Source of the DNA: a virus
Lineage: Duplodnaviria; Caudoviricetes
Strand: one strand, 5' to 3'
Length of the DNA stretch: 64,000 nucleotides
IMG/VR virus record: IMGVR_UViG_3300025543_000001
Location: 533-64,532 of that record
Positions 19,136 through 43,283 of this stretch are shown here, piece after piece. Under the pieces are notes generated by a model. The model had not been told where the DNA came from. It saw nothing but the letters and a program-made list of their open reading frames with translations, and searched no databases. Positions within the stretch are counted from its first letter, which is position 1, and each line of letters starts with the position of its first letter. The position numbers were made by a program, and so were the translations under genes.

Positions 19136-19149
19136 TTTTTTAAAAGACC

Positions 19150-19157: not shown

Positions 19158-19187
19158 GTCTTTATTCATCCATAAACATTTTTTCAA

Positions 19188-20230: not shown

Positions 20231-20258
20231 CGTAATTAAATTACGTTTGGTTTTTAGT

Positions 20259-20289
20259 AAAGGGGTCACAAATAGTGGCCCCTTTTTTT
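20259..20289 (+). terminator. Rho-independent terminator
   Basis: GGGGTCAC-aaata-GTGGCCCC followed by T7. Confidence 0.85.
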
Positions 20290-20293
20290 GATT

Positions 20294-20301
20294 TATCTTT
20301 G
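20294..20301 (+). promoter_or_regulatory. Bacteroidota-type -7 promoter element
   Basis: TATCTTTG right after the terminator, 14 nt before ATG 20316. Confidence 0.6.
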
Positions 20302-20315
20302 TCAAAAGCGTCCCT

Positions 20316-21002: not shown

Positions 21003-21003
21003 T

Positions 21004-21930
21004 ATGGCATACCTAACTCAATACCAATACTACGAGAACGCTGGAGCTTCGCCTGAAGACGCGAACTGGGGTTCATATCAATACGTGAGTTTGCGCGATA
21101 TCGTCAGCAACTACCAGCTTATGTACAGCGGTAATAACGAGCTGGTCAACGAGAAGTCTCGATATAAGATTCTGTTTCACGCTAAGCGGGCGATACAGGA
21201 GCTCAACTACGATGCGTTCAAAGAGATTAAGGTATTGCAGCTTAACGTATCGGACGACTTGCGGTTTATCCTTCCTAGTGACTATGTCAACTGGGTTCGG
21301 TTATCTATGTTTAAGAACGGAGTAGTATTCCCCTTGACTGAGAATATTCAAGTTACTAGCGCACAGGCTTACCTACAAGACTCCAACAACCGAATTTTAT
21401 TTGACGAGACAGGGGCTGCACTAAAGCCAGAGTTTTCGCCTATTGATGAGGCTAGGCTGAATAAGACTTTGAAGTCTATGTACCTCAACGAGAATAGTCC
21501 ATATAACGGCTACGAGGGGTGGTGTATCGATGGGATGTGGTATTTTGACTTCCCTGTTGGTGGCGCGGCATTTGGCCTCAATACAGAGACGGCTAACGCC
21601 AATCCTACGTTTCGTATTGACCCGAAGTCTGGAGTCATTAACTTTAGTTCGGTGATGTCGGGTGAGAGCTGCATATTGGAATATGTGAGCGATGGTATGG
21701 AGGGCGGTGATGACTCACTAATTACGGTAAACAAACTTTTCGAAGACTACGTTTATGCGTATATCTCCTACGCATTACTGAACTCACATATGGGTACACA
21801 GGAGTACGTAGTGAATCGCTCAAAGAAAAATAAATCTGCTTTACTTAGAAACGCAAAGATTCGTATTAGCAATATCCATCCTGGGCGCCTTTTGATGAAC
21901 TTGCGCGGACAAAATAAGTGGATTAAATAA
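21004..21930 (+). CDS. Tail ring/structural protein
   Basis: 308 aa; LPSDYVNWVR and ILEYVSDG motifs; tail module position. Confidence 0.65.
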   Translation: MAYLTQYQYYENAGASPEDANWGSYQYVSLRDIVSNYQLMYSGNNELVNEKSRYKILFHAKRAIQELNYDAFKEIKVLQLNVSDDLRFILPSDYVNWVRLSMFKNGVVFPLTENIQVTSAQAYLQDSNNRILFDETGAALKPEFSPIDEARLNKTLKSMYLNENSPYNGYEGWCIDGMWYFDFPVGGAAFGLNTETANANPTFRIDPKSGVINFSSVMSGESCILEYVSDGMEGGDDSLITVNKLFEDYVYAYISYALLNSHMGTQEYVVNRSKKNKSALLRNAKIRISNIHPGRLLMNLRGQNKWIK

Positions 21931-27395: not shown

Positions 27396-28168
27396 TGGCT
27401 GAGACGTTAACATATTCACAGGACGTAAAGGGATGGCCTTCGTTCTACTCATATATACCTGAGTGGATGGCTGGTATGAACAACTACTTCTACTCTTTCA
27501 AGGGAGGTAATCTGTACAGGCATAACACCAATGAGGTGCGCAACCAGTACTACGGGGTAAATTACTCATCGCAGATGACCAGTATCTTCAATGACAACCC
27601 GACGGACAACAGCCTTTGGAAGACGATGGAGCTGGAGTCGGACCAGGCTTGGGAGATAGAGCTGGAGACAGACATCCAAAACGGGTATATTGATGAGGCG
27701 TGGTTTGAAAAGAAGGAGGCTGTGTTTTTTGCGTTTGTCCGAAACCCTGATGGTGAGAACGGCGAGCCCGCCTTGACGATTGACCCTTCGCAGTATGTCC
27801 TACGCTCGGTTAACGGCATTGGCTCTAATACCACTGTAGCGGCTGGAGTCATCACCTTTGGTTTCCCTATAAGCAGCATCTTATCTATTGGAGATATCCT
27901 GTACACTATAAACCCCACTACCCCAGGCGTCCCTTTGTTAGTTGGTCCTGTCACTGCTTTCTCAGCGGATAGAACCGAGGTCAGCTTTACGTTGTCGGCA
28001 AGTGGAATAAACCCGCAGGACACGTGGTATATGATGGGCGTAAAGAACGCACAGGCAGAATCCCACGGGGTACTCGGACACTACTGCAAGTTTATCGCGA
28101 CCAACTCATCGACTACTGCTACGGAACTTTTCGTAGTAGAAAGCCAGATGATGAAATCGTATCCTTGA
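27395..28168 (+). CDS. Tail protein, likely the separated C-terminal part of the stabilisation protein
   Basis: TAATG-coupled start MAETLTYSQDVKGWPSFYSY (ORF track start 27344 is probably too early). Confidence 0.7.
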   Translation: MAETLTYSQDVKGWPSFYSYIPEWMAGMNNYFYSFKGGNLYRHNTNEVRNQYYGVNYSSQMTSIFNDNPTDNSLWKTMELESDQAWEIELETDIQNGYIDEAWFEKKEAVFFAFVRNPDGENGEPALTIDPSQYVLRSVNGIGSNTTVAAGVITFGFPISSILSIGDILYTINPTTPGVPLLVGPVTAFSADRTEVSFTLSASGINPQDTWYMMGVKNAQAESHGVLGHYCKFIATNSSTTATELFVVESQMMKSYP

Positions 28169-28175
28169 TTCTAAT

Positions 28176-28183
28176 TATCTTTG
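28176..28183 (+). promoter_or_regulatory. Bacteroidota-type -7 promoter element
   Basis: TATCTTTG 16 nt before ATG 28200. Confidence 0.6.
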
Positions 28184-28199
28184 ACTAAACATAAATCTT

Positions 28200-29018
28200 A
28201 TGGCATTTGTAACAGCAGCACTACAGTTAGCTTCGGCGGGCGTAAGTACGTACCAAGCCATTGAGGCTAACCGTCGCATTAAAGACGCTCAGAAAGCCGC
28301 TCAGAGAGCGACGCGCGAGGCAAAACGCCTCACTGAGATTAACCCTATGCAGGAGCTTTCTGTCCCTACAGAAGCCTATATGCAGGCACGAGAGAGCCAG
28401 CAGCGATTGATGGCTCAGCAAGTACAGGCAGCACAGGAGGCTGACCCGAGGGGTGCGGCACGTAGCGCGGGACTCGCTGTCGGTGGTAGCCTCGCTTTAG
28501 AAGACGAGTTGCGGTCGGCTCAGGAAATGATGCAATACAGAAGGGATATAGCTGTAAAAGGTCAGGACGTAGCTAATATAGCCGCTCGACGAGGTATCGC
28601 GGAGGCGGAGGCTGCTGGAGCTCAGCAAGCTGCTGCTGACTCACAGGCGGCTCGAGCTGCCGCTATCACCTCGGGAGCTGAGATGCTAGCTGGTGTAGGA
28701 GCTACGATTGACGCTGGTCAGGCGTTGTATAAGCAAGGGCGTGGCTCTAAGATGATTGGTAAAGAATTACAGGGAGATATGCGAAATGAGTTCCTAGCAC
28801 AAGCCACTCCTGTATTACAGCAACAGATGCTTGGTATGTCAGCTGGTCAACGTGAACAGTTCGCTCGACAATATGGCCTTGACCTAGATACTATGCAGTC
28901 AGCTTTAGGAGAAGATGGTAACTTCGGTGATTTCTTAGGCTCACTCGGTGGTCTAACACAGCAAGAGCTTTTGAGTCAGGGGTTAACGATAGACCAGATA
29001 AAAGCCGCTAGGAAATGA
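28200..29018 (+). CDS. Putative internal virion/ejection protein
   Basis: A/Q/G-rich helical protein with hydrophobic N-terminus, after tail genes. Confidence 0.6.
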   Translation: MAFVTAALQLASAGVSTYQAIEANRRIKDAQKAAQRATREAKRLTEINPMQELSVPTEAYMQARESQQRLMAQQVQAAQEADPRGAARSAGLAVGGSLALEDELRSAQEMMQYRRDIAVKGQDVANIAARRGIAEAEAAGAQQAAADSQAARAAAITSGAEMLAGVGATIDAGQALYKQGRGSKMIGKELQGDMRNEFLAQATPVLQQQMLGMSAGQREQFARQYGLDLDTMQSALGEDGNFGDFLGSLGGLTQQELLSQGLTIDQIKAARK

Positions 29019-30787
29019 GCTACTATAAGTACGTAAAGAGAGACGAGAAGAGCAGGGTAGACTGGGGTGCTATTACTAGCAACCTTGTTGATACGCTAAA
29101 AGAGCAGGAGGCGGACCGCGAGAAACAACGTGAGGCCATTGACGCTTCGTCTCGGGCTACAGGAGATATCTTGTCCGATGCTCCGCAGGGGGAAAATAAA
29201 GCTGCCAACGAGTGGATTCTAAACGCTTCGTCTGACGCCTCTCAGTACTTAATGTCTCAGAACCGACTGCTAAAGTCTGGTCTCCTTGACCCTCGTGAGT
29301 TTACTGTCAACCGACAAAACGTAGAGGATAGCTTCAAGGCTTTGCAGGATGTATCTAAAAATGCTCAACAGTATTACAAGGAGACAATGGACCGCATTGA
29401 GAACAATGAGTCTATCGTCGGTATGGAGGGGGCAATACAGGAGCAGCTCAATAAGTTTCAGAACTGGTCTAAGACACAGGCGTTTGTGAATCCTACCAAC
29501 GGAAAGATTAGCATAGGTATGCTTGATAAAGATGGTGGTCTCTCTAAAAACGCTTCCGAGTTTAGCAGCATTGAAGGCATTACCAATCGTATGCGCTCTC
29601 GTTATGACAGGTATGATTACTCACCAGACCTACAAAGCTGGATAGACGGAGTCGGTAAAGACGTAAGGGTAGTTCGTAAAAAAGGTGTACTAACCCTTTC
29701 TGACGCTAGTCAAGACGCTGGATTCCAAACAGCGCTTGATGAGCAAGTGGGAGCTCTTGTTGATAGCAATCCCATTCGCGTTGTAAGTATACTAGAGGAG
29801 CTTGGACTTATCGATGGCTATGACATTGACGGGGAAAATACCACGCAGAAAGGCGATAAGTTCAATGTAGCTATGAAGAATGAGAACGACGGCATTGTTA
29901 TGCCAGAGGTTACTGATGATATGAAAGCCAAGGCTCGTGAGTTCTTAAGTGGGCAGATGCTTAATATGCTTGACAAGGAGCAGACGGCTATGCCAGAGGA
30001 CAGGGCTGCACAAGCCTTTAACAGGGTGCGAAATGCGGGCGCTAAAGATGACGCTGCTGTATTGGATGCGGTAGGGCTTTTGTACTCGGGTAGTAAAAAT
30101 GATATTGACTCTGCCGTTAAGTCACTTGCTGGTTTGAACCCTAATATTCAAAGTATACAGCGAACTAATAGAGGAGTTACGGTTATTTACAAAAATGGCG
30201 ACGCGTCAGACCTGCCGTTCTATAAAACAGATGGCGACGGAAACGTTATAGCAGGTCCTGAGTTTTTGATAGACGGTAGAAACTGGACTACTGGCGCCGC
30301 TGGTTTGATTACTGGGATTACAGAGAAGAATTACAATAAGATAGCTGAGGAATCTAGCTGGAATCCTATGTACGATGAATTTACCGTAGCTAAAGTTTTC
30401 GAGCCTTATGATGAATCGGAAGCAACGTTTGGGTTCTCCTATGGAACTACTGCTAAGGACCCGCTGAAAGCTGTTCAAGATATAAAGGCTGGCGTTACTG
30501 CTGAGCTCTTTGCGTCTGATGACGAAGATACCGTAGCCAACAGTGTCAGTGAAGTGGTCAGCAAGTTAGGGTTTAATGTAGAGGGTGTTGGTCTTATTCG
30601 GGATGTGATAAAGGTTACAAACCCCGTTACAGGGGAATCGGTAGAGATTAAAACTTCGGATAGCGAAGCCGCTAAAAACAACTTATTGTCATTCATAAAT
30701 AGCCAGGTAGCGACAGCAGAGGATATAATGAGAGTAAATTTGCAGTCAGGAGGAACGGGGACTATAGACTACAGCACTTTTAATTAA
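29015..30787 (+). CDS. Putative internal virion/ejection protein
   Basis: 590 aa between small and giant ejection-type genes. Confidence 0.6.
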   Translation: MSYYKYVKRDEKSRVDWGAITSNLVDTLKEQEADREKQREAIDASSRATGDILSDAPQGENKAANEWILNASSDASQYLMSQNRLLKSGLLDPREFTVNRQNVEDSFKALQDVSKNAQQYYKETMDRIENNESIVGMEGAIQEQLNKFQNWSKTQAFVNPTNGKISIGMLDKDGGLSKNASEFSSIEGITNRMRSRYDRYDYSPDLQSWIDGVGKDVRVVRKKGVLTLSDASQDAGFQTALDEQVGALVDSNPIRVVSILEELGLIDGYDIDGENTTQKGDKFNVAMKNENDGIVMPEVTDDMKAKAREFLSGQMLNMLDKEQTAMPEDRAAQAFNRVRNAGAKDDAAVLDAVGLLYSGSKNDIDSAVKSLAGLNPNIQSIQRTNRGVTVIYKNGDASDLPFYKTDGDGNVIAGPEFLIDGRNWTTGAAGLITGITEKNYNKIAEESSWNPMYDEFTVAKVFEPYDESEATFGFSYGTTAKDPLKAVQDIKAGVTAELFASDDEDTVANSVSEVVSKLGFNVEGVGLIRDVIKVTNPVTGESVEIKTSDSEAAKNNLLSFINSQVATAEDIMRVNLQSGGTGTIDYSTFN

Positions 30788-30794
30788 CTAAGAG

Positions 30795-33700
30795 ATGAAC
30801 GAACAGGTAATTGACGACTTATATGCGCGAGCCTTACAGAGTGGTTACAAGAAAGGACGTGCTGATTTCGTTCAATTGATACAATCAAATGATGATGTAT
30901 TCAATGATATGTATCAGTATGTTCAGTCTAAGGGATATGCTAAAGACGCTCAAAGTTTCTCCTCCCTTGTAGGAAAGCGAACCGCCCCCACTGTAAAAAA
31001 AAAAGTTACGGCATCCGTATCGGAGCCTGGTTCTTTGGTCTCACCAGAGCCTCAAGTACCTGTTGCAGAGGCTGTCGTTGAGGAAGAGGTTCAGGACTTA
31101 ACGGTTGCTGAGCCTGACTTCTTTGAGGAGCGTATGGCTATGGTATCTCCTCAACTTATTGACCGAGGTGATGAGGACCAGGTGGCTCAAGAACTTACCG
31201 ATGTATTTAAGCCATACGGATTTGAGGTAGAGCCTACAAGCATAGGCGATGCGCTAAAGGTAACCGCAGCTAACGGACAGACTATTGAGGTTGACCTTGA
31301 CCCTATGGAGCTTCCGTCTTTCCTAAGCGTAGGGCGCTTTGGTTTTACTGGCGATATGGACACTGAAACGGAGAAGTCAGAAGCGAAAAAGCTACAAAAC
31401 TTTTTGAGAAAAAATCGACAGGAAGGGTTGGATGCTCCTCGTAGGCTTGTAACCCAAGAGCAAATCGACAATAACGTAAAGAAAATTAATGACGCCGAAG
31501 AGGTAATCAATAAACAGTTCTTGTCTTACGTAGAGCGAAAAAGTATTTTTGACGCCGAGTTTGCTGAAGCTTTCCCTGTGAATGACGTGCAGGCAGTAGC
31601 AGCTGACCCAGAGGGGTACAATGATTTTGTACAAAGAGGCAGGGACTTAGATATTGAAGCTCAGGGATTACGTCAGAACGATGAGCTTCTTAAGGAACAA
31701 GGTAGGGAGCTTGATAAGGCGGCTGGAGAGTACACGTCTATGCTTGCCAATAGAGGTGATTGGGGTGGAGGCTTGTGGAACAAAATGCTAACGGGTATCG
31801 GAAGGATTTCTGAAGAGGCGTACAACGTAGCAATGGATAAGGTTACGGGGGCAATCCCTTTGATGACCACCGACCCTGCTTACTACCAGTCTCGTTTTAC
31901 CGAGGAGGCTGAACGAAGAGGTATAACCCCTCCTTACGGGACAGATGGAGCTAAAGCCACCAGAGCTGAGTTCCTGAGTTTTATGACCAGTATAGACTCC
32001 GATGTTCGCAATGAAATTGGAGACAAAGTTGTTGATGACTATAAAAAAGAACGGAAGTTTGGGGAGCCAGTCGATGTAGAAAAGGCTGTGAACCGATACT
32101 CTCAATACGCTGCTTCTGAAAATATGAAGCTGAAGGGTGGTGAACTTGAGGCCGTTCGTAATGGGCTCTTGAATGTACTAGGCGATTCAGAAACCACGCC
32201 TGAGTGGACTCAGCTAAAAGAGCAGGGTTTTTGGGGAGGTGCCTTTTTAGGTTTGGCGGAGTCCATACCAGCTATGGTTATTCCAGGGGGATGGGCGGCT
32301 CGTACGGCGGCTATGTATGGTCAGGTTGCGAGCCATCTAGGGCAGGAGATGGCTAGCATCCCTGAGTTTCAGGATGTGTCTGAGAAAGAAAAAGCTATGT
32401 TCAAGCTACCGCTTGGAATTGTAGTGGGTGCATTAGAAAGTATTGGTTTTAGAAACGTAGTTAATCAAAAGGGATTGCTTAATAGCATACTTATGCAGGC
32501 TCTTAAGAAATCCCCTAAGAATGTAACGGGTAAAGCTTTTAATGATATTGTAGACCGAGAGGTAAACAGTATGATAAGTAGGGGGCTGCTAAAAGTGGGA
32601 GCTGGTGGTCTTGCTGAGTTTGAGACTGGTCTCGCTCAAGAGATTGCCGATATAACAGGTAAAGAAATTTACAATGCTCTAAAAGAAAAGGAGATGTTTG
32701 ATACTCCTGAGTCTTTTGGTGAAGGATTAGAGCAGGTTGTGATTGGCGGACTTCAGGAGGCGGTGGGCGGTTTAGTGTTAGGCGTTCCAAATGCAGTAGC
32801 CACTTCTTCCGTTAAGAAGGATTTTACTGATATGGACGACGCTACGTTTGAGCTTTTTCAAAACGTAAGCAAACAAACGGATAGCGGTCAGTTGAGCTAT
32901 CGCCATATGTTTTATACGAACCTTAAGTCTAAAATTAACCAAGGTAAAATAAGTAAAAAGGAGGCTCAGCAACAAATGGATAACCTCGACGAGGTAATTG
33001 CCGTTAACCGAGATATCCCGTCCGACTTAACGATAGACCAGCAGAAGCGTTCTCTTGGTATCTTACTTAGGAAGAAAGACTTACAGGAACAAATTGAAGG
33101 GAAAGACCCTATCCTTGTGAAGCGTCAGCAAGAAGAACTGAACGGACTTAACAGGGAACTAGACCAGATACTATACGGAACACCAGAAACAGATGCCATT
33201 CAAGAGCCAAGCCCAGAGACGGTGGATGCACCAGAACCTACCCGAGGTAGCGAAGCGGTGGGAGAAGGAGTACCCGACATCGGAGAACCTACCGCAGAGG
33301 TTGAAGCCGAAGACCAAGTTGCAGAAGCGGCGCCGACAGCGGAGGTCGCGGTAGAAGATGACGAGTCTGGAGGCAGTGCTGAATTTAGGGAGTTTAACAA
33401 AGGTCGTCGTAACCTAGAGGAGAAAGGTTATACGCAGCAAGCTGTACGGGACATTATTAGCCAAGCAATATCCTCACTGGATATGGGTAGGGCAGGCGAC
33501 GTAAGGAAATTAGTTAACTCATTTAAAAAACTAAAAGCCGAGTCCATCATACCAAAAGCTGCGGATTTGTCATCGGGAGATACTGTTGGTATGGCGATAA
33601 TGGATTCGTCAGAGAATCTGTCTAATGATATTTACCGTTCACTGGCTAGAGGGGAAGTTTCGTTAGAAGAGTTTCAGGCTTTCGCAAAGAAATTTAATCA

Positions 33701-36700
33701 ACCACTACCTGAAGCTGCGCCTGTGGTAGAAGAAACTGTGTCGGAGCCGACACAAGAGGTGACGGAGGAAGAGCAGGTTGACATCGACGATTTCTTCAGT
33801 GATAAAGAGATAGACGGCGTAGACAAGGTAGATGACAACTTAGTGGTGAACCGCAAGCAGCTCAGCGAAGACAAAGCGGAGACAGCTCAGGACGAGAGAA
33901 AGATAAGCCGCATCAAGCAGATAGCTAAGAAGGCGGCGGTATCGCTGAAGAAGCAGTTCCCTGATGTAAGGATTGTACTTCACGAAACAGAAGGGCAGTA
34001 TAAGCGCTTTGCTGGCAAGCGAGCTCGAGGGGCTTACGTAAAGGACGACAAGACTAAGACTATTCATATCAACCTCAGCATAGCGGACCTCTCAACTGTC
34101 CCTCACGAGGTGTTCCACGCATTGCTTTTGGAGGCTGCTGCAACCGACCCGCAGGCGTTGGTGATAGCGCGTAATATGCTGGAGTCGGTTCGGAAAGTTG
34201 TCGACCCTAAATCCGATATGTCTAAGGCTATCGAGAAGTTCGTCGCTAAGTATGAGGACGTACCTGTCATCCAAGACGAAGAGTACCTCGCCGAGCTGAT
34301 GGGTATCCTTTCGTCGCAGTACCGTACGCTGGACAAGCCAAGTAAAAATACAATCAAGGAGTTCTTGCGTAAGCTAGCCAAGCTAGTGGGTATCGACACC
34401 AAGTTTGGTTTAGATGAGTTCTTCGGTCCTGAGTTCTTGGAGAGAGACGAGCAGGTCATCGACTTACTCAATACCATATCAGGCAAGGTATCCAAGGGGC
34501 AGTTTATTGAGGCGGCTGACGTGAAGACTATGGGTGATATCCTTGCTGAAGCCACTCCAGCTGAGCAAGCACAAGCACAGCGTGAAGTTAGAGACTTCAA
34601 ACGTAAGGAGAGGGAGAGGAAAGCTGCTGAAGACAATCTCATTAACAGGAGTCAGGCTGCTTCTAATTTTACTGACGAACAATTAACCGCATTTGCCAAG
34701 GAAGGTATTCTATTTCACGGCTCTGATATGCAGAAAGAGTTTTTCGATAGCCGTTTTATAAAAGAGTTTAATTACGGATATGGATTTTATTTCACTGGAG
34801 TGCCAGCGCTAGCTCGTAAGTACGGAGATAAACTTTCCTTTGTTGACACCAAGCAGTTTAATTTACTAGACGGCGATGAGGATATAACTCAGGAGGACGC
34901 TCAAGATATGCTTGATAACCTTCCTGGATATGGGCTAGACAATGAGTTTGTAGAGGAATTTCTTCAGGATTATATCGATGATGAGGGTTTTGAAAACGAC
35001 CCACAGTCTTGGTCTATGTTTATCACTGAGTACATATCAGATTATGAATCCAAAGCTGAGATATTTTCTGAATACTTAGAGTCTGAGTTGGGATTCGATG
35101 GTATGACTACTGTTGAGAACGCTGGAAAGGGGGCTGTTCCTACAGTAGCTGTTGTATGGAACTTCGATTTACTCAATGACAACGTCTTACAAGACCCTAC
35201 TAAGGAAAAAGTCATTGAAGAGGAAGCTCCCAAAGAGGTAACTCGAAAAGAAGAGGCTACTAAAGATGTTCTAGACTTTGTATCTCTCGTCAGCAAGGGA
35301 ACGAGTGAGGATGTAATATATCTAAACAATAGGAAGGCTACACCGCGTATGCAGGTGGTTACCGAGGAAGACGGTAAGCCTGTGACGTTCTATCACGGAA
35401 CGGATAAGAAGTTTGACAAGTTCGAACCACAGAAGTCAACGCGTACGATTCTGATGTCTCAGTACGAAGTGAAGACGCCTGCTATATTCTTCACCCCTGA
35501 CGAGGCGGAAGCTCGGGAGTATGGAGATAATATCATCCCCGTAAACCTACAGTTTGAAAAGCTAGTCGAGGACAATATCGACGAGGCGGCTCAAATCATA
35601 ACCGACTACTACGTAAAAGAGAAGGACGGTGTTATCGAAGTGCAGGATGGTGTCGTTGACCTTTCCGATTACTATGACGAAGCTACCGATTCTTACAATA
35701 ACAACTGGGTCAAAGACGTACTTGACGAAGCAGAAGGTATCGACTGGATGCTCCTCGATGAAGAGGCTTTGGTAGAAAAGTTCAAGGAAGCTGGCTTCGA
35801 TGGAACTAAGGTGTACGAAGGAGATAAAGCTTTCTCTGTAGCCACATTCTATCCTGAGAATATCGTAAGGCTAGACCAAGGTGTGGCTCCACGCCAGCAG
35901 GTTTCAATAACAGATACCGATAGTACCAACCCGTCTTTCGAGAAGGGCAGTATGAAAGACTTTAGTGTTGAGGGCGGTATCCTTGAAATAGGTAAAGTTA
36001 AAGGCGCTAAACAATCTAGCGTCCTTCGTCTAAGTGTCGACGAAGATAACCGTAGGCAAGGCAAGGCCACTGAGCTTTTAAAAAGCGCTCTAAATTATAC
36101 TAACGGTATGCTTTCGGCTATGGCGTCTAAGGATGCGGCTGTAGGTTTAAACTATAAGTTGGGTATGCGAGCGTTTTCTCCTGATGGTAATGAATTATCT
36201 CTTGAGGAAACCAAAAATCAACGAGCCGAGAACGCAGGGGAGTCTATCCGTATGGAGCTACCCGATTCTAAAAAGGGCAACAACTACAAAGCCTTTGACG
36301 AAGGGATGGCTCCTCGCCAGCAGGTAGCTGACATACCTCAGTCTGCTAAAAATGTCCTTTACGGAGACAGCGATGTTCTACCAAAACCGTCTAAGAAAAA
36401 GTCAAATTCACAGGTAGCGCAGGACCTAGCTGAGGTAGCGGCTGAGTATTATGGCGGTGAGATAATTACAAGTAAAACGATTACTCCAGAGCAAGAAGAA
36501 ACCATTACTGAGGTAGGTACAGAGGAGGCTATAGCTGCTTTTGAGGATAGTGGAAAGAGCGCAGCCGACTGGTACTCTACAGCGATTGAAAAGGCTATGG
36601 CTGTGGCGGCAGTTATTCACCCATCTCTAAGTTCGAAAGAAGAAGCAAGTAAGTATGAGGCTTTTGCCAAAGAAAAAGACCCTGTAGCGGCAGCGAACTT

Positions 36701-39700
36701 TGTTATGCGCGTCGCCTTGGCTATTACCTCGCAGAACTTAAACGTAGAGGCCAACGCGAAATATGCAAACGAGCAGTTTGATATATTTAAAAAGACAGGT
36801 CGATTTGATGCATCTAGAGAATACGGAACCAAAGCAAAGTCGATATCATCTAACTTAAGACTGGCTAACGTTCTCGTCGAAAAGATTGGCCTGAACGCAA
36901 CAGAGGATTTTGTCCTTCAAGAGTTCAATGTGTCTGAGCTAGAGGTGGCGGCGTCAAAGGCTTTAGGCAAAAACATAAAAGTATCTGGCCTCCGTAACGA
37001 TAGCGTAAACGGAGCGGCTTTATTCGGTCCTAAGATTGGTCAAGGCTTCCTACAGAATCTGATGGGTAAGTTTGACCCCGTAACGATAGACCTGTGGTTG
37101 CGGCGCACTTGGGGGCGATGGACAGGAGATGTAGTGGGAGTGGGAGTAAAGGAAGAACGTATGGCTCGCTTGTTAAATGGATTAAAAGAAGCCAAGAAAG
37201 ACACGGGAGTAGAGGTGCCTGACGTTATGAAAAAACATCGAGTCGTAAGAAAGGTGCGGCCCTCAACGGGCGCCTCTTACGATACGATGTCTGATAAGTT
37301 TATTTCTGAGCTCGAGGAGGATGCAGACTTCAGAGATAAGATAGCTGCTTTTGCTAAAACGCTATCAACTAAAGGAGACCTTATGTACAAGCTCATCAAG
37401 AACGAGCCTATGTCGGACGGTCTTTACAAAGCCTTTATATCTGGTGAGAAGACGTATGGTCAAACAGCGAATCAGTTACAGCGTATTAAGGATAAGCTTT
37501 CGGCTAAGTACAAGGACTATGTCTCTAAAGAAAAAGCTAAAGGAAGAACTCCTCTTAAAAAATCAGAGTGGGTAAAAGGTCAGAACCAAAAAGACGGTCG
37601 TGTAAACTCTCCCAATAACGAAGCTATATCAGCTCGTAAACCAGAGTGGGTTAAAGCGGCGACTTCCATAACGAATGACCTCAAGCCAATTGACATACCT
37701 ACCAATCAAGACAGGAAGGTAATTACTCGTATTGTAAACGATATAAAAAAGCGTATGACCGAGCAAGGGTACCCCGTTACCAACGCTGACGTTCAGGCTT
37801 TGCTCTGGTATCCCGAGAAGGATATCTGGGCTAAACTAAGGGGAGAAAAAGAGTCTAACTTAAAACAATCTTATGATGACCAATTCATTAAAATCGCAGA
37901 GCAAAAAGGGCTCGGAAAAGAAGCCAAGTCAGCCGCAGAAAATGTTGAGCGTAAACGAGCCGCACAACCTAGCGGAGTTGATGAGCGAAAAACAGATGTC
38001 GGAGTTTCTCGACTTACTGATAAAGAAGGCGTAGCCCCTCGCCAGCAGGTTATCGAGGACGTGACGGCAAAAGAGCTTGACACTCCGTTAGACAGGCAGC
38101 AAAGGGTGTTTAGGTCTGGAGACTTAGAAAATAAAGCTGAGCCTCGGTGGAAGTTTAGGTCTAGTCGAGAGACTGGTCATTTTGGAACAGGGTTTTACTT
38201 TTTTGGAACTAAAGAGCAAGCAGACAAGTACGACGCTAGGGATGTATCTGAGCTTGATATCGATAAATACAACTTAGCAAAGGCGACTAAAGAACTTCAC
38301 CAAGCACTAAGAGTAATCAACGACCGTTACAATGAGTATTATACAGCTGAAGCTGTTGATGAACTAAAAAAGGAACCTTTAAGGCAAGCGGTGCCTACTT
38401 TTTTTATTGAAGAGGTAGCTGAAGCAGCGGGGATGGATGTCATCAGTGAAGCTGAGGCAGAGGCCGCAGCAACAGAGGTGACAAAGGCTTTGACGAAGGA
38501 TGGCAACCCTGCGTTCGGGGACTCTGTTTCTACTCTAGTGATGAAGGCCCTGGGATTTGACGGTGTAAATGCTGTAGGGACTAGTTTGGACAACTCAAAA
38601 TACGGCACAGTAATCTATGACCTTAAAGAAGACGTAGCCCCTCGCCAGCAGAAGCCTTATCCATCAGGCCCCGAAGAGGCTGCAAAGATGGGCTACCTCG
38701 TTCACGCTTCAGATAAGTCTCGCGACTCATTTGACAAGAAGTTCATCAAGGGCAGAAACAGAACAGAACTGGGCGCGTTAGGTTTTTACTTTACAGCTAA
38801 CGCTCAGAAGGCAAAGGACTACGGAGGTGAATACACCTACATAGACCCCGCGGATATGAACCTGTTAAACCTCGACGAGGTAAAGGGAAATAAACTACAA
38901 GGCTTCCTGTCTGACTTAGAAAGAAATCTAGGTAAATTGTCATCCTACAGAATGCGGCTTATAGCGGCTCAAGACAAAACTAGAAGCATTTCAGAATTCA
39001 ACGAGCTTGATGCCGAACTAAAAAAGGTTGACGCTCAAATAAAAGCCCAGTCTCCTTTTGGCACATCGGCTAGTTCTCAGGATAGAGTGCTTAAGGCGTT
39101 AAAGAAGGCGAAGGCTAAAAATCTTATGGAAGCCTATAGGGTGTCTGAATACGCAATAGAGAGTAGACTCGGCAGAAAAAGCGATACTGACGCAGCGTTT
39201 AGCGATTTGCTTTTTAACGCTGGATACGACGGGATTTACGAAGGACCTGGCTTATACAAGGTAGCAATTTTCGATATAGACGGCCTAAATGATGCTATCG
39301 TAAGGGATGACGTAGCCCCTCGCCAGCAGTTGAGTGATATCGCTACTCCGCTTCCGCGTCAGCAGAAGTCGGTACGTGAGGTGGTGCAGCAGGCGCGAGA
39401 CAATAACTTCAAGGACGCAGCAACCAAAGACTTCCTCCAGCGTAAGGGTGTACCAACAGCAGATATCGACAAGGCCATCAAGACCTTGGACGATGTGTAT
39501 GCCCGAGTGATGAAGGAGATTGACGGCGTCATCACTAAGTCTCAGAAACGTGGTGTCGACTTCGACACACAATTGAAGAACGCGCTGGCTTACCTACAAG
39601 GCACTAAGCTCTACGAGGATACCACTGATATCCACAGGGAGAAGTTGATGCGTGAGGTACGCGCTAAATTCGATAAGAAAGAGAAGCGAGCACCGTCAGC

Positions 39701-42700
39701 GAAGCGTATCCTTGGAAACATCAAGGACGTCAAGAAGGTGACGCTATCCGAGAAGGAGGCGCTCAAGATGCAGCTGAGGCTTGTCGCTAAGACCGCTAAG
39801 ACCACAGCTAGAGCTTTGGTGGTGGCGGGCAATGAACTGACTAAGTCACTGAAGGAGATGGTCAAGGGTGGTGTCATCACTGCCAATCAGATGAGCTCTG
39901 TCCTGCGTCGGTTCAGCCGAGTGGACTTGTTCAACCCTGCCAGCATCGATAGCTTCTTGGACTATATGGCTAAGATATTCGCCGATGCGGAGTACGGAGC
40001 GAAGATTGCTAGAATCAAGAAGCTACTTCCCCGAGCCAAGAAGAATATAAAGTCTAAGATTGGCGTTGCCGACGTGCTCGGAGATACCCTCACTAAGCTG
40101 TTCAATGTCAACCCTACGTTGATACCGATGGAGATGCTTGAGGACTATCAAAATCTCCTTGAGATGATGGGTGCTGCAAAGAAGGTGCTCCCACTTGCAG
40201 ACATCAACGACGTAACGGAGATGGCTAATAAGCTCCTGAACGCGGTGTACGAAGAGGTATCTATGGCTGAGGACTTGGCCGAGGTATTTGCGAACTACGA
40301 GAATAAAGTCATCAAGGACGGTAAGCTCGACTACGCAGCTACCGTTCGCGCTATGATAGCTGACCAGACCATATCAGAGGCGGAAGCCACTGTAATGATT
40401 AAGTATAAGTCTCGTATCGTAGAGCCTACAAAGAAAGAACCTAAGACCGAGGCAGAGCTAGCCGAGGAAAGGGCGGCACTTATGTCGGCGGTTGAGGCTG
40501 CCAAGGTCAACGTCTCGCGTCTGGTTATGGAAGAGGAACGAACCCTAGCTCGTCAGCTCTCCAAGCTGATGCGTACCGAGGCTATCGAGAGGCTCAGCAA
40601 CCAGCAACTAGAGACGCTGCTAGCTGTCATCGACAACATCAACAACGGCTTCGTGACCCACGCGGCTAATAGGTTGTATGTAAATATGAACGCTTTAAAC
40701 AATGATAATCAATTGGCAGACTCTTTACAGGAAGCTGACCCGTTATCCATATCAAAGTTTGTAGCCAAGGTAAAAGGTGGTATTACTCAGAATAATAAAT
40801 TCTTTGAAGCTATCAAGAGACGACCATTGGCATATATAGATTCATTGTTCGGAGACTTCAAAACTAACCGTATATACAACTCTGTATTTAGACCATTGGC
40901 AAAAGCTTTTGATTCTATGAATGTAGAGATTCAAAGAATCGAGGAGCGGTTAGATAATGCAGAAAATGTAGTAAGAAAGTCTTTTAAACGCAATCCAAAT
41001 AAAGTTCGCTTGTCATCGTACAAGAGGATGACATATATGTTACAGCGTGAGTTTGAAGCTAATCCTGATAACGGACAGGTAAACCCTGCTGCTGACTTCA
41101 TACGGGCCACCATTGACCACATCAATGAAGGCAAGTCTTTCTTCAAGGGCAGAGACGCAGAGATGCTTCAGCAAATACTTGACGACTTCGGTGTAAGCAT
41201 TAAGGACGCGGACGGAAATGAAGTTATACAGATTGACTCTCAGAAGCTGTACGACTCATTCAATAAAGCAGAGCGAAATGCACTTGCCGTAGCTGAAGAC
41301 ATAAACAAGTCTCTTGCAAGCAAAGCTTCATTTACAGCAGCAGTAATTCAAGGTAGAAGAGCCGATATATTAAACCAGTACGCACACCATAACGTACTGA
41401 GTAGTAGCGAGCAGGCTGACAAGTCAACAAGTATATCAGAAATTCAGAAATACAACCAGTCACTTCGGGCCTCTACCAAAGCTAAGAATTCAATTGAGCG
41501 TACGGGAGCCGTAACTCCATTGAACTTTGATGTGTTAACGTCGGTGTCGCGAGGCGCTAAAATGATGCTAACAGACTTCTACCTTACAGACCCTGTACGC
41601 ACATCACGAAAGACCATATCGAATACGCGTAAAGTTTTAGAGGAAAGGGGCAACGCAACAAAGCAGGACAAAGAAATATTAAACGCAATTGACCAAGCCC
41701 TTGAACTTGCCCTTGACGACGTCTTAACCAAGACTTTTACGCAGGGAACTATGGTAGACAACATCATTCAGTACATATCGAAGACGGGCTACCGAGTAGT
41801 TTTGGCTTCAGTGAGTCGTTTTGGAGCGGAAGGGTTGAGTAATAGTGGATTTGTATCCTTGTTTGCTCCGAAACAAATGGCGTTGGGTTTGTCGAAAGAG
41901 AATATGAAACTGTCCATTGGTAGTGAGGGAACCGCAGTAGATATTCTGTCTGCTCTAGGTAGCACACAAATTTCTAGGTTATTTCCTGACCAGATGCTGT
42001 CTGGACGTATGATTGACACTTCAGTTCTTGGGGAAAAGTCTGGAGATAAAGGGGGTAGAGCTTATGGCGAGGTAGCCAACAAGATGTTGCAGATATATAA
42101 TGGAGTAGTAAAACCTGGGAAAGAGGGTGTCGAGAGGGTGGCTGATGGATTAATATCTACCCCAGATAAAGCCGTTATCCGACCGCTATGGTTTGGGTCT
42201 TTTGAATATAAGTTCGAGGAACTTACAAAGAAGAAACCAGATATGGACAAGATAGCCGCAAACGATGAGGCTTATATGGATGCTAATCAAAAAGCCCTAG
42301 ACGAAGCTACTGACTATGCGGACCAGATGACGACATTTGCTGGAGCCGCCGACAATCCATTCAAAGGTCTTCTTAAAGGCAAGTACCCGTCAAGCGTGAA
42401 GCAGTCGGCTATGCTTCAGGCGTTTAACATATCTAACAGCTTTATGACCCGCTTCTTGATATATGAATTTATATCAGCTCAAATAGGAACGTACGCTATG
42501 ATGGGTAGGGGTATGATTTCTAAACGTCAAGGTGCGGCACTCCTCGGGGCTGTTGCCACCCGTATGGTAGTGTATACTTTGTTAACCACTGTATTTGCTC
42601 AGATATTTAAGCAAGCGTTTGGATTGGGTGATGAGGAAGAAGAGAAAGATATAGAGAAGCAGTTCGGTCAGGCACTGGCCTCTACTGCCGTCAGCCTTAT

Positions 42701-43283
42701 AGTAGGCCGAGACTTCGGTAACGTAGTGAAGGGGCTCCTTAACTACGGAGTGGAGAACCTCAACGAAGAGTTCCTAGACGAGCTACGTGACGGAGACTAC
42801 GACCCGTACCGCGACGCTATCGCGTACACCTTTGTTCCGCCAGACAGGGAGTACAAGTCCAACACGCTAGCCGATTACATCCGTAACCTGATGGGTCCGT
42901 TCGGACCCTTCTATAAGATGGCGGAGTTCGGAGTGAAGACGCTTAGCGCCGACGAGAAGAAAGACCCAGCGGCACGTATACGTCAGCAGCGAGAGCTCAA
43001 CGAACGACTCCCGCTCGAGTTACTTGGAAACTTAGGATTGATTCCTCTGTACCGTGATATAAGGGCGCTCTTACTAGCCGATATCTACAAGGGTATGGGC
43101 AAGGAGAAGAAAGGAAGTAGTACGGGTATGACTAAGGCTGAAAAGGCTCAGATGAAGGAATACTTCCCAGAAATGTATGAGATGCAGATGCAGCTAGAAG
43201 AAGATATGAAGAACCCTGAGCTCGAACGTATGATGAAAGAGCAGGAGAAGGCTATCGAAGAAATGATGAAGAGTTTAAAATAA
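30795..43283 (+). CDS. Giant (4162 aa) polyvalent virion/ejection protein: HExxH metallopeptidase-like, four ADP-ribosyltransferase-like, GNAT-like and HhH-like modules
   Basis: HEVFH at 34104-34118; FHGS/YHGT/FRSG/VHAS plus (G)F(Y/F)FT and G(F/Y)DG motifs; VDEDNRRQGKA; VTIDLW..QALLW. Confidence 0.7.
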   Translation: MNEQVIDDLYARALQSGYKKGRADFVQLIQSNDDVFNDMYQYVQSKGYAKDAQSFSSLVGKRTAPTVKKKVTASVSEPGSLVSPEPQVPVAEAVVEEEVQDLTVAEPDFFEERMAMVSPQLIDRGDEDQVAQELTDVFKPYGFEVEPTSIGDALKVTAANGQTIEVDLDPMELPSFLSVGRFGFTGDMDTETEKSEAKKLQNFLRKNRQEGLDAPRRLVTQEQIDNNVKKINDAEEVINKQFLSYVERKSIFDAEFAEAFPVNDVQAVAADPEGYNDFVQRGRDLDIEAQGLRQNDELLKEQGRELDKAAGEYTSMLANRGDWGGGLWNKMLTGIGRISEEAYNVAMDKVTGAIPLMTTDPAYYQSRFTEEAERRGITPPYGTDGAKATRAEFLSFMTSIDSDVRNEIGDKVVDDYKKERKFGEPVDVEKAVNRYSQYAASENMKLKGGELEAVRNGLLNVLGDSETTPEWTQLKEQGFWGGAFLGLAESIPAMVIPGGWAARTAAMYGQVASHLGQEMASIPEFQDVSEKEKAMFKLPLGIVVGALESIGFRNVVNQKGLLNSILMQALKKSPKNVTGKAFNDIVDREVNSMISRGLLKVGAGGLAEFETGLAQEIADITGKEIYNALKEKEMFDTPESFGEGLEQVVIGGLQEAVGGLVLGVPNAVATSSVKKDFTDMDDATFELFQNVSKQTDSGQLSYRHMFYTNLKSKINQGKISKKEAQQQMDNLDEVIAVNRDIPSDLTIDQQKRSLGILLRKKDLQEQIEGKDPILVKRQQEELNGLNRELDQILYGTPETDAIQEPSPETVDAPEPTRGSEAVGEGVPDIGEPTAEVEAEDQVAEAAPTAEVAVEDDESGGSAEFREFNKGRRNLEEKGYTQQAVRDIISQAISSLDMGRAGDVRKLVNSFKKLKAESIIPKAADLSSGDTVGMAIMDSSENLSNDIYRSLARGEVSLEEFQAFAKKFNQPLPEAAPVVEETVSEPTQEVTEEEQVDIDDFFSDKEIDGVDKVDDNLVVNRKQLSEDKAETAQDERKISRIKQIAKKAAVSLKKQFPDVRIVLHETEGQYKRFAGKRARGAYVKDDKTKTIHINLSIADLSTVPHEVFHALLLEAAATDPQALVIARNMLESVRKVVDPKSDMSKAIEKFVAKYEDVPVIQDEEYLAELMGILSSQYRTLDKPSKNTIKEFLRKLAKLVGIDTKFGLDEFFGPEFLERDEQVIDLLNTISGKVSKGQFIEAADVKTMGDILAEATPAEQAQAQREVRDFKRKERERKAAEDNLINRSQAASNFTDEQLTAFAKEGILFHGSDMQKEFFDSRFIKEFNYGYGFYFTGVPALARKYGDKLSFVDTKQFNLLDGDEDITQEDAQDMLDNLPGYGLDNEFVEEFLQDYIDDEGFENDPQSWSMFITEYISDYESKAEIFSEYLESELGFDGMTTVENAGKGAVPTVAVVWNFDLLNDNVLQDPTKEKVIEEEAPKEVTRKEEATKDVLDFVSLVSKGTSEDVIYLNNRKATPRMQVVTEEDGKPVTFYHGTDKKFDKFEPQKSTRTILMSQYEVKTPAIFFTPDEAEAREYGDNIIPVNLQFEKLVEDNIDEAAQIITDYYVKEKDGVIEVQDGVVDLSDYYDEATDSYNNNWVKDVLDEAEGIDWMLLDEEALVEKFKEAGFDGTKVYEGDKAFSVATFYPENIVRLDQGVAPRQQVSITDTDSTNPSFEKGSMKDFSVEGGILEIGKVKGAKQSSVLRLSVDEDNRRQGKATELLKSALNYTNGMLSAMASKDAAVGLNYKLGMRAFSPDGNELSLEETKNQRAENAGESIRMELPDSKKGNNYKAFDEGMAPRQQVADIPQSAKNVLYGDSDVLPKPSKKKSNSQVAQDLAEVAAEYYGGEIITSKTITPEQEETITEVGTEEAIAAFEDSGKSAADWYSTAIEKAMAVAAVIHPSLSSKEEASKYEAFAKEKDPVAAANFVMRVALAITSQNLNVEANAKYANEQFDIFKKTGRFDASREYGTKAKSISSNLRLANVLVEKIGLNATEDFVLQEFNVSELEVAASKALGKNIKVSGLRNDSVNGAALFGPKIGQGFLQNLMGKFDPVTIDLWLRRTWGRWTGDVVGVGVKEERMARLLNGLKEAKKDTGVEVPDVMKKHRVVRKVRPSTGASYDTMSDKFISELEEDADFRDKIAAFAKTLSTKGDLMYKLIKNEPMSDGLYKAFISGEKTYGQTANQLQRIKDKLSAKYKDYVSKEKAKGRTPLKKSEWVKGQNQKDGRVNSPNNEAISARKPEWVKAATSITNDLKPIDIPTNQDRKVITRIVNDIKKRMTEQGYPVTNADVQALLWYPEKDIWAKLRGEKESNLKQSYDDQFIKIAEQKGLGKEAKSAAENVERKRAAQPSGVDERKTDVGVSRLTDKEGVAPRQQVIEDVTAKELDTPLDRQQRVFRSGDLENKAEPRWKFRSSRETGHFGTGFYFFGTKEQADKYDARDVSELDIDKYNLAKATKELHQALRVINDRYNEYYTAEAVDELKKEPLRQAVPTFFIEEVAEAAGMDVISEAEAEAAATEVTKALTKDGNPAFGDSVSTLVMKALGFDGVNAVGTSLDNSKYGTVIYDLKEDVAPRQQKPYPSGPEEAAKMGYLVHASDKSRDSFDKKFIKGRNRTELGALGFYFTANAQKAKDYGGEYTYIDPADMNLLNLDEVKGNKLQGFLSDLERNLGKLSSYRMRLIAAQDKTRSISEFNELDAELKKVDAQIKAQSPFGTSASSQDRVLKALKKAKAKNLMEAYRVSEYAIESRLGRKSDTDAAFSDLLFNAGYDGIYEGPGLYKVAIFDIDGLNDAIVRDDVAPRQQLSDIATPLPRQQKSVREVVQQARDNNFKDAATKDFLQRKGVPTADIDKAIKTLDDVYARVMKEIDGVITKSQKRGVDFDTQLKNALAYLQGTKLYEDTTDIHREKLMREVRAKFDKKEKRAPSAKRILGNIKDVKKVTLSEKEALKMQLRLVAKTAKTTARALVVAGNELTKSLKEMVKGGVITANQMSSVLRRFSRVDLFNPASIDSFLDYMAKIFADAEYGAKIARIKKLLPRAKKNIKSKIGVADVLGDTLTKLFNVNPTLIPMEMLEDYQNLLEMMGAAKKVLPLADINDVTEMANKLLNAVYEEVSMAEDLAEVFANYENKVIKDGKLDYAATVRAMIADQTISEAEATVMIKYKSRIVEPTKKEPKTEAELAEERAALMSAVEAAKVNVSRLVMEEERTLARQLSKLMRTEAIERLSNQQLETLLAVIDNINNGFVTHAANRLYVNMNALNNDNQLADSLQEADPLSISKFVAKVKGGITQNNKFFEAIKRRPLAYIDSLFGDFKTNRIYNSVFRPLAKAFDSMNVEIQRIEERLDNAENVVRKSFKRNPNKVRLSSYKRMTYMLQREFEANPDNGQVNPAADFIRATIDHINEGKSFFKGRDAEMLQQILDDFGVSIKDADGNEVIQIDSQKLYDSFNKAERNALAVAEDINKSLASKASFTAAVIQGRRADILNQYAHHNVLSSSEQADKSTSISEIQKYNQSLRASTKAKNSIERTGAVTPLNFDVLTSVSRGAKMMLTDFYLTDPVRTSRKTISNTRKVLEERGNATKQDKEILNAIDQALELALDDVLTKTFTQGTMVDNIIQYISKTGYRVVLASVSRFGAEGLSNSGFVSLFAPKQMALGLSKENMKLSIGSEGTAVDILSALGSTQISRLFPDQMLSGRMIDTSVLGEKSGDKGGRAYGEVANKMLQIYNGVVKPGKEGVERVADGLISTPDKAVIRPLWFGSFEYKFEELTKKKPDMDKIAANDEAYMDANQKALDEATDYADQMTTFAGAADNPFKGLLKGKYPSSVKQSAMLQAFNISNSFMTRFLIYEFISAQIGTYAMMGRGMISKRQGAALLGAVATRMVVYTLLTTVFAQIFKQAFGLGDEEEEKDIEKQFGQALASTAVSLIVGRDFGNVVKGLLNYGVENLNEEFLDELRDGDYDPYRDAIAYTFVPPDREYKSNTLADYIRNLMGPFGPFYKMAEFGVKTLSADEKKDPAARIRQQRELNERLPLELLGNLGLIPLYRDIRALLLADIYKGMGKEKKGSSTGMTKAEKAQMKEYFPEMYEMQMQLEEDMKNPELERMMKEQEKAIEEMMKSLK
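33193..33354 (+). CDS. Overprinted small basic protein (53 aa) in the +1 frame of the giant gene
   Basis: MPFKSQAQRRWMHQNLPEVAKRWEKEYPTSENLPQRLKPKTKLQKRRRQRRSR; ATG 33193, TAG 33352-33354. Confidence 0.65.
   Translation: MPFKSQAQRRWMHQNLPEVAKRWEKEYPTSENLPQRLKPKTKLQKRRRQRRSR
33738..33753. repeat. GTGTCG-N4-CGACAC palindrome inside giant gene (codes within ETVSEPTQ)
   Basis: gtgtcggagccgacac. Confidence 0.9.
35883..39365 (+). repeat. Dispersed (V/M)APRQQ-coding 18-bp repeats between domains of the giant protein
   Basis: Copies at 35883, 36306, 38031, 38634, 39312 (last three identical GTAGCCCCTCGCCAGCAG), plus PRQQ at 39354. Confidence 0.9.
39553..39568. repeat. GTGTCG-N4-CGACAC palindrome
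   Basis: gtgtcgacttcgacac. Confidence 0.75.

Follow-up and report, generated by a model that had tools for sequence, protein, structure and literature searches.

Is a short peptide that recurs along a giant phage protein a signal for cleavage of that protein, a joint at which its domains are exchanged, or both? The question is raised by a DNA stretch of 64,000 nucleotides (nt; hereafter the window), positions 533 to 64,532 of the IMG/VR record IMGVR_UViG_3300025543_000001, which represents 64,000 of the 64,532 bp of a phage genome contained in one contig. The source is a Flavobacteriia-type podophage of 64.5 kb. One open reading frame (ORF) of the window, P0001, encodes a protein of 4162 amino acids (aa) in which the motif (V/M)APRQQ is repeated downstream of an HExxH sequence. 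An initial annotation of this DNA described the protein as an array of effector cassettes, and proposed that the motif is a protease site that releases the effectors after injection, an 18-bp recombination joint, or both. As judged by comparison with related sequences, the protein is very probably a cassette array in which the motif serves as an in-frame exchange joint; on the same kind of evidence, the case for cleavage at the junctions by a built-in zincin is evenly balanced.

A repeated motif between modules

Seven copies of the motif are present in the giant ORF: five of (V/M)APRQQ, one of LPRQQ and one of TPRMQ (junctions J1 to J7 in Table 1). The APRQQ copies start at aa 1699, 1840, 2415, 2616 and 2842, and LPRQQ starts at aa 2854; in TPRMQ, the sequence P-R-M-Q starts at aa 1517 and the codon two residues before the proline is at nt 35337. 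The initial annotation had located all of them correctly (35883, 36306, 38031, 38634 and 39312, with LPRQQ at 39351 and TPRMQ at 35340), together with an HEVFH sequence upstream (nt 34104, i.e., aa 1104). It had also described three copies as identical in DNA, and those at 38031, 38634 and 39312 do share all 18 nt, GTAGCCCCTCGCCAGCAG; in the remaining two APRQQ copies, differences are confined to third codon positions or to the choice between V and M. A repeat search grouped the APRQQ copies as one family of five copies of 28 nt that are 71-100% identical.

At least one PRQQ was obtained in only 24 of 2000 composition shuffles of the giant protein, and the six occurrences of PRQQ in the six frames of the window are all inside the giant ORF. 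The shorter word R[QM]Q was found ten times in the giant protein, compared with an expectation of 0.61 (standard deviation 0.77). Three of these ten are additional to the junctions (aa 777, 2434 and 4063); the copy at aa 2434 reads TPLDRQQ and lies 14 residues past J4, and the other two are in the terminal regions. The other ORFs of the window are mildly enriched, with six R[QM]Q against 1.7 expected. Some of the sites are in tandem, with spacers of 6-14 residues, and these resemble the spacer peptides of polyproteins. Among 80 instances of the motif, which come from the window and from 16 loci of the same lineage (lineage A, the lineage of the PR[QM]Q junctions), 16 have the context of the tandem J6-J7, IATPLPRQQKSV.

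Related words are also found outside the giant gene. An in-frame R-Q-Q (NIVRQQSAG) is present at 26568-26576, at aa 1547 of an 1821-aa structural protein (ORF 21930-27395) and shortly after the phrog_14478 match in that protein (aa 4-1485); a further site and a chance occurrence are both possible. The 9-mer CGYCAGCAG is present in 12 copies in the window, compared with 0.63 expected. Seven are in the giant gene and five elsewhere (17142, 19761, 59579 and 63247 on the minus strand, 26568 on the plus strand), four of the five being antisense to the local gene.

The motifs had been placed at domain boundaries, and this description holds as far as the comparisons below reach. The Pfam envelope of the ADP-ribosyltransferase (ART) domain, aa 1525-1690, fits between the sites at aa 1517 and 1699. 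In distant representatives with a match to ART-PolyVal, R-Q-Q sites enclose the whole domain in three of three cases, the downstream site lying 8 residues past it. Repeats inside folded domains would have counted against the initial annotation; among ten representatives scanned with Pfam, a site was found within none of the five envelopes. The last 18 residues of module M3, which precede J4, are predicted to be disordered, with a predicted local distance difference test score (pLDDT) of <50 in an AlphaFold2 (AF2) model. In three viral loci (L007, L016 and L017) and in three proteins the end of the ORF coincides with the position of J4. Recoding was considered for the three loci and dropped, the in-frame stops being ordinary ORF ends.

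Exchange of cassettes at the junctions

A search with aa 1040-2900 returned 64 giant proteins as relatives, 21 of which contain PR[QM]Q in one to six copies and 43 of which contain none. When the relatives were cut at the motif and the pieces were clustered, a small set of cassette families of varying number and order was obtained, and the DNA of the 16 lineage-A loci is a mosaic. Locus L001, for example, is 97-99.5% identical to the window in the shared blocks and has a different cassette set: it lacks aa 856-976, module M0 and the GNAT module M2, contains an extra 240-aa cassette, and has a 139-aa cassette in place of M5. A comparison of cassette content between relatives had been suggested with the initial annotation, and the content differs even at ~99% identity in the shared blocks.

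The ends of the homologous blocks coincide with the motif. In 22 loci, which are related and whose block ends are therefore not independent, 48 of the 52 blastn block ends within aa 1290-2870 were 10 residues or fewer from an R[QM]Q, compared with 9.9% of the region that is this close. The context before the motif tracks the upstream cassette and the context after it tracks the downstream cassette, in many combinations. The flanking contexts thus recombine across the motif and the crossover is therefore inside it, i.e., exchange takes place at the motif. A crossover role is also suggested by the 18-28 nt of DNA that are common to all of the joints. Cassette-less members of lineage A have kept four copies of the motif, in tandem pairs. 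Site-specific shuffling of the integron or Xer type was considered and dropped, since a Pfam scan of 37 ORFs revealed no site-specific recombinase.

The recombination-joint half of the original proposal is thereby upheld by the breakpoints in the relatives, and the protease-site half has circumstantial support, which is described below.

Association of the motif with a peptidase-like domain family

The domain that contains HEVFH was found in 39 of 65 proteins (the window protein and its 64 relatives), including all 21 with PR[QM]Q. Every lineage in which repeated junctions were found in this set carries it except P0042, which has an HEIGH sequence of another type. In the ten proteins of a cassette-free lineage the domain, HExxH and the motif are all missing. 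Searched as a profile, the domain matched 913 representatives at E ≤0.001 among 1.84 billion, most of them giant proteins in which it lies close to residue 1000.

Motif enrichment was measured in the 124 of the best 149 representatives that have at least 1500 aa; these are mutually ≤50% identical. They contain 233 R[QE]Q against 77.2 expected and 132 RQQ against 25.1 expected, whereas the reversed words are not enriched (87 vs 75.2 and 37 vs 25.9, respectively). Downstream of the first HExxH there are 0.89 sites per 1000 aa, compared with 0.31 upstream of it. K is the next residue after R[QE]Q in 96 of the 233 sites, and both PSIRQQK and L[ST]PRQQK are seen again in numerous unrelated representatives. 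An exact 4-mer repeat test was uninformative, being positive for 102 of the representatives and for 80 in shuffles. Two control sets, both small and each closely related internally, showed no such enrichment: the peptidase-less lineage had four sites against 5.8 expected (n=10) and proteins that contain the core module M3 (core-bearing proteins) without the peptidase had 24 against 17.1 (n=16). The motif is therefore associated with the peptidase family. From the sequences compared, the junction consensus is [VIM]-[ATS]-P-R-[QM]-Q, and a core of R-(Q/E)-Q-(K/V) is common to the peptidase-bearing giant proteins. A further 28 viral loci have a core-bearing ORF of at least 1500 aa without the peptidase and contain 27 sites in total; no separate gene for the peptidase was found within 10 kb in those loci. 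Loci L066-L073 carry the peptidase without an array, which speaks against a simple link.

Seven residues of the domain (H28, H56, H69, E70, H73, E127 and E128) do not vary among 15 sequences with 26-94% identity to that of the window; the E127-E128 pair lies in a helix downstream of HExxH, and either residue may be a metal ligand. The predicted order of elements (a helix, three strands and the HExxH helix) is that of a minimal zincin, in an AF2 model with a pLDDT of 65.6. MATCAP, lethal factor, collagenase, aureolysin, PPEP-3 and SPRTN appeared as weak Foldseek matches. A profile search against the PDB returned only IrrE, at E 0.46, with nothing below E 0.03.

Cleavage signal, exchange joint or both

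The following mechanism is proposed as the most likely. The polyvalent protein probably resides in the capsid and leaves it together with the phage DNA, given that the giant ORF ends the virion module. A conserved ‘chassis’ at both ends frames the zincin-like peptidase domain and, after it, the enzyme cassettes, which comprise one or more ARTs, a GNAT-like module and an HhH-GPD-like module. The junction peptide would be a recognition signal at which the built-in peptidase, the candidate cutting enzyme, cuts the chain; the scissile bonds would then be at the junctions, and the enzymes could act separately early in infection, possibly in anti-defence. The joints would double as in-frame crossover points, where cassettes may be deleted, duplicated or swapped between co-infecting relatives, and the phage has Sak and exonuclease genes of its own. 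In the most complete form of this proposal, which is offered tentatively, the junction is a dual code: a cleavage signal of an unnamed zincin family (the 913 clusters above) written in silently uniform DNA that serves cassette exchange, with junction and specificity co-evolving by lineage (PRQQ, TRKQK, TRARR, AEQRV).

Several observations weigh against cleavage and the dual role. The fold of the peptidase domain is weakly supported, both by the pLDDT of its model and by a best Foldseek E of 0.056; the structural comparison with VIA gave Z ≤6.7, with zincins (SPRTN, Z 5.4; 3e11, Z 5.0) placed amid unrelated rows, and a Pfam search with aa 1040-1290 matched no peptidase family at E ≤1. Only 39 of the 124 representatives contain R[QE]Q at least three times, and under a strict test a 7-mer is repeated at least three times in only seven of the 124, three of these being leucine-rich-repeat (LRR)-like. 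Most peptidase-bearing relatives have no obvious array, which implies that the peptidase does not need one. Insertions and deletions of cassettes also occur away from the motif, i.e., those of M0 (at an R-K-A microhomology) and of aa 856-976. The virion RNA polymerase (vRNAP) of phage N4, which also has a metallopeptidase (MPTase) domain, is described as packaged uncut in the part of PMC5512222 that was available to us.

These points bear on a possible, if doubtful, alternative in which the motif is an exchange joint or linker and nothing else: the peptide would be arbitrary and specific to each lineage, the protein would work uncut (as the unprocessed N4 enzyme does), and the HExxH domain would have another task, such as a host target or ejection. 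The breakpoints at the motif, the free recombination of contexts across it, the Sak annealing protein and exonuclease of the phage, and the lack of arrays in most peptidase-bearing relatives are all consistent with this. The codons of lineage A point the same way. Over the 55 distinct contexts collected there (80 instances), neither R nor the last Q changes, which is partly built in by the regular expression with which the set was picked (it fixes P-R-[QM]-Q), and silent differences are seen in the codons for Val, Ala, Pro and Arg. Arg is nevertheless encoded by CGY in 55 of 55 contexts (background 40%), and Gln by CAG in 97 of 101 cases (background 62%). Such silent uniformity exceeds the needs of a peptide signal and therefore suggests homogenisation at the DNA level, for which a pure recombination joint would suffice.

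The junction peptides also differ between lineages: ETVTRKQK (3-4 copies in P0008 and P0010), PTTRARR (5-8 copies in P0032-34), RAAEQRV (seven copies in P0044), LRQQK (two copies in P0029), PKSKQSL (three copies in P0042) and PETPEQK (three copies in P0020). An arbitrary joint would account for this diversity. Several observations speak against such a joint. In lineage C (L004), where the copies share no more than ~12 nt, five T-R-A-R copies differ from one another at each of the four third codon positions, and their eight first and second positions are constant; the peptide itself is therefore under selection. Three boundaries found by homology rather than by the motif read SIRMQ, NKRQQ and LDRQQ, and R-[QM]-Q is therefore the constant part. 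Across lineages, the core cassette is 54-76% identical and the peptidase 24-30%, and the remainder cannot be aligned, which indicates that the core cassette has moved between frames and is flanked in each by the local junction peptide, i.e., by that of the recipient. A core of R-(Q/E)-Q-K recurs at <50% identity, where DNA homology is gone, and tracks the peptidase family. Finally, the four tandem-paired motifs retained by cassette-less lineage-A members are not what a pure exchange joint would predict.

A cleavage signal could instead be read by another protease, either a host enzyme after ejection or an M43-like zinc metallopeptidase that is encoded elsewhere in the window, beside a gene for a GroEL-like protein, and that is a possible trans-acting protease. 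The weak zincin assignment of the built-in domain leaves room for this, yet it is an improbable reading: motif enrichment follows the family of the built-in peptidase and is found mainly downstream of HExxH, no ORF of the window apart from the giant one contains PRQQ, and the R[QM]Q count elsewhere in the window is as low as that given above. It is similarly hard to credit a non-proteolytic signal, e.g., a docking or unfolding tag for capsid packing or tail threading. In its favour, conservation of the motif is at the peptide level, and the linkers that hold it are polar and probably disordered; according to the available part of PMC10172136, moreover, the cargo proteins of crassviruses attach to the portal and tail barrel through short segments. 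Against it, no partner could be named, the link with the peptidase family would go unexplained, and tandem sites spaced by 6-14 residues do not obviously fit a docking tag.

Modules of the giant protein and their genomic setting

The features of the giant protein are given in Table 1. The initial annotation had called four ART-like modules, a GNAT-like module and an HhH-like module. M1 is a solid ART, and M3 is HhH-like as judged by its predicted fold; M0, M4 and M5 are weak ART candidates, and the GNAT-like match of M2 is below its cut-off. A cassette homologous to M2 in P0044 exceeds the cut-off of PF00583 (22.2 vs 20.7 bits). M0 has edges of R-K-A microhomology instead of a junction motif. 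The first 18 residues of M4 form a leader, the last seven of which are T-P-L-D-R-Q-Q (nt 38082-38102). Alignment of M4 and M5 with M1 by hhalign lent no support to the ART assignment, with probabilities of 0.5-6.6% from shallow alignments of four near-identical rows. The C-terminal chassis has one transmembrane-like segment by hydropathy (aa 3916-3934, nt 42540-42596). No match to the whole giant protein was found among PDB sequences at E up to 1; a megablast search of a phage collection with the giant gene returned none, and neither did a tblastn search with the C-terminal 1305 aa.

Table 1. Coordinates of the giant ORF, its modules and junctions, and the virion module that it ends.
Feature	Position (nt)	Strand	Basis or remark
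Virion module	11051-30787	+	TerL, portal, major capsid protein (MCP)-like, 1821-aa structural protein, muzzle C-domain protein, two further proteins
Giant ORF P0001, 4162 aa	30795..43283	+	Final gene of virion module
N-terminal conserved ‘chassis’, aa 1-855	30795..33359	+	Lineage-A homology blocks end at aa 855; no Pfam match
Variable insert, aa 856-976, between acidic linkers	33360..33722	+	Absent from L001; no Pfam match
HExxH zincin-like putative peptidase domain, aa 1036-1295	33900..34679	+	HEVFH at nt 34104-34118
M0, aa 1279-1512, weakly ART-like	34629..35330	+	ART-PolyVal E 0.003 (18.8 bits), DUF3990 E 0.0046, for 34662-35339
J1, A-T-P-R-M-Q	35337..35354	+	Homology block ends at aa 1512-1517
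M1, ART-PolyVal ADP-ribosyltransferase	35355..35879	+	PF18760, E 4.8e-13, 50.5 bits vs cut-off 31.2
J2, V-A-P-R-Q-Q	35883..35900	+	Motif scan and repeat family
M2, GNAT-like	35901..36302	+	Acetyltransf_10 E 3.1e-4, 21.1 bits vs cut-off 23.6
J3, M-A-P-R-Q-Q	36306..36323	+	Motif scan and repeat family
Core module M3, 568 aa, HhH-GPD DNA-glycosylase-like predicted fold	36324..38027	+	AF2 model and VIA
J4, V-A-P-R-Q-Q	38031..38048	+	Motif scan and repeat family
M4, ART-like	38049..38630	+	DUF3990 E 0.026, no ART-PolyVal Pfam match; Atlas ART-PolyVal clusters, 0.94
J5, V-A-P-R-Q-Q	38634..38651	+	Motif scan and repeat family
M5, ART-like	38652..39308	+	ART-PolyVal E 0.0042 (18.3 bits); Atlas ART-PolyVal 0.93
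Tandem J6-J7, V-A-P-R-Q-Q, spacer L-S-D-I-A-T-P, L-P-R-Q-Q	39312..39365	+	Motif scan
C-terminal conserved ‘chassis’, aa 2858-4162	39366..43280	+	phrog_32588 matches aa 3334-4128; 80-97% nt identity in lineage-A loci

The core module M3 gave an AF2 model with a pLDDT of 85.4. The Foldseek search that had been suggested for each module was run with the models of M3 and of the peptidase domain and gave no PDB match at E ≤0.001 for either; M3 has no Pfam match, and a profile of the module returned from the PDB sequences albumin-binding modules alone, at E 0.17 or worse. In a VIA scan of 48,161 PDB representatives, HhH-GPD glycosylases made up 20 of the 23 top rows (Z 5.2-8.4), with NTHL1 at Z 8.4 (root-mean-square deviation 3.6, 187 residues aligned), and the other three were HhH-GPD-like enzymes (PaMx11 gp46, Z 8.6; DUF2419). 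The assignment of M3 as HhH-GPD-like is supported by this modelled fold and is one of fold, not function, a Z of ~8 being middling for a helical protein. An invariant segment, GPKIGQGF...PVTIDLW, resembles the hairpin and catalytic Asp of HhH-GPD enzymes, and D256 may be equivalent to that Asp. M3 is also the most conserved part of the giant proteins (window and loci L003-L040), at the identity given above across lineages that share little else, and it is present in giant ORFs of 31-47-kb viral contigs, often as the C-terminal domain.

On the 3′ side of the giant ORF the coding strand flips to the replication genes, which encode an SNF2-type helicase, a primase, the Sak annealing protein and the exonuclease, the last being of the PD-(D/E)XK type. 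The capsid protein is closest to those of Elemovirus phages of Flavobacterium (46%), followed by Callevirus (Cellulophaga phage phi38:1, 41%); its nearest relatives are not crassviruses. A crassvirus muzzle C-terminal domain is present at 27344-28168 (E 5.7e-12), in a genome with an Elemovirus/Callevirus-like capsid and no DFDxD RNA polymerase. A reading of the giant ORF as a crAss-type vRNAP polyprotein was dropped despite the equivalent gene position: no stop-free D[FYVIL]DxD was found in any frame of the window, and the vRNAP_dom match in the giant ORF is below threshold (E 0.014).

Other features of the window were noted. At 822-7832 a 2336-aa protein is encoded, a probable receptor-binding fibre in which DUF285 matches six stretches and one segment resembles arabinofuranosidase B. 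The M43-like metallopeptidase gene is at 59242-60321 on the plus strand (Peptidase_M43, E 1.4e-14), with the GroEL-like chaperonin gene directly downstream on the same strand (Cpn60_TCP1, E 3.3e-57; phrog_5725), and the pair spans 59242-61979. A local peak in GC content (0.528 vs ~0.45) at 56000-58000 shows a strong negative GC skew and contains short ORFs without Pfam matches. No tRNA and no Rfam family was found in the window.

Discussion

The idea that such proteins are processed is already in print. Autoprocessing of polyvalent proteins by the MPTase domain was proposed by Iyer et al. 2017 (PMC5512222), with processing of P1 DdrB cited, as far as the accessible part of that paper goes; the same part names no cleavage or junction motif, ‘cleavage site’ being present in the title of a reference only. 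Fused crAss-like polyproteins have been described as ‘likely cleaved’ (Drobysheva et al., bioRxiv 10.1101/2020.03.07.982082, in the portion available), and neither ‘cleav’ nor ‘proteas’ occurs in the portion available of the crassvirus atlas (PMC10172136). Among the articles listed on polyvalent proteins and phage cleavage sites, none concerned junction motifs by title or abstract, and neither ‘APRQQ’ nor an explicit junction code was found in the literature searched. The explicit junction motif would then be the new part, within that literature.

The giant protein shares several features with the polyvalent proteins as they are described in the available part of PMC5512222. Like them, it is encoded in the late operon of a phage and is a giant with many domains, at least eight modules in 4162 aa compared with 2-15 unrelated domains; it has ART-PolyVal above the cut-off (LPD23, LPD37 and LPD38 were found in relatives only); and its HExxH, with a conserved His in the preceding strand, corresponds to one of the MPTase types of that paper. 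Unlike them, it has a defined peptide at its joints, which is lineage-specific, linked to the peptidase and located at recombination breakpoints.

The position in the virion module by cargo-like genes, the muzzle C domain upstream and the zincin-like domain are shared with phi14:2 gp65/gp66/gp67 and the fused crAss-like polyprotein, in so far as the sources available describe these. The window differs in lacking DFDxD, in its genome length of 64,532 bp and in its Elemovirus/Callevirus-like capsid. A parallel in cultured phages is provided by Flavobacterium phage elemoA gp21 (3694 aa, NC_055852.1), which has the same peptidase family (34% identity, E 2e-27); both it and Cellulophaga phage phi38:1 gp101 are giant ‘structural proteins’ that end the virion module of phages with related major capsid proteins. 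Unlike the window protein, elemoA gp21 has no PRQQ array, and contains one two-copy candidate, QEDAVQKQ, with the copies 132 residues apart. Its gene (L058, 4537-15621) encodes HEIFH at aa 1543, and the cultured phage offers a laboratory system in which processing could be tested.

Polyproteins of the picornavirus type are cut by a cognate 3C protease at a short, repeated cleavage consensus. The giant protein has the corresponding trait, i.e., a repeated conserved site at domain boundaries and a candidate protease in the same chain. If cleavage is real, the likeness would extend to one chain with a built-in protease, a site of 4-7 residues at the boundaries, and spacer peptides. It differs in that the candidate is a metallopeptidase and in that the products would be swappable accessory enzymes, not a replication core. 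A second likeness is with polymorphic toxins and integron cassettes, in which effector ends are swapped: a fixed frame, variable effector cassettes and short conserved joints are common to all three. In the giant protein, in contrast, cassettes are exchanged within a single reading frame that has several internal joints, and general recombination is the probable route.

Autocleavage of polyvalent proteins has been supposed since 2017, and the candidate sites now make the question directly testable. They are exact to the residue, number six to eight in one protein, and have a core common to a peptidase family with hundreds of representative clusters. The joints are also natural split points for the expression of single modules. 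As relatives that are ~99% identical in their shared blocks differ in cassette content, the enzymes of the putatively injected protein, ADP-ribosyltransferases among them, can apparently be renewed very quickly, which bears on the evolution of counter-defence repertoires. Were the junction indeed a dual code, the array would be a protein-level analogue of the integron, and the zincins would free early effectors from giant ejected proteins.

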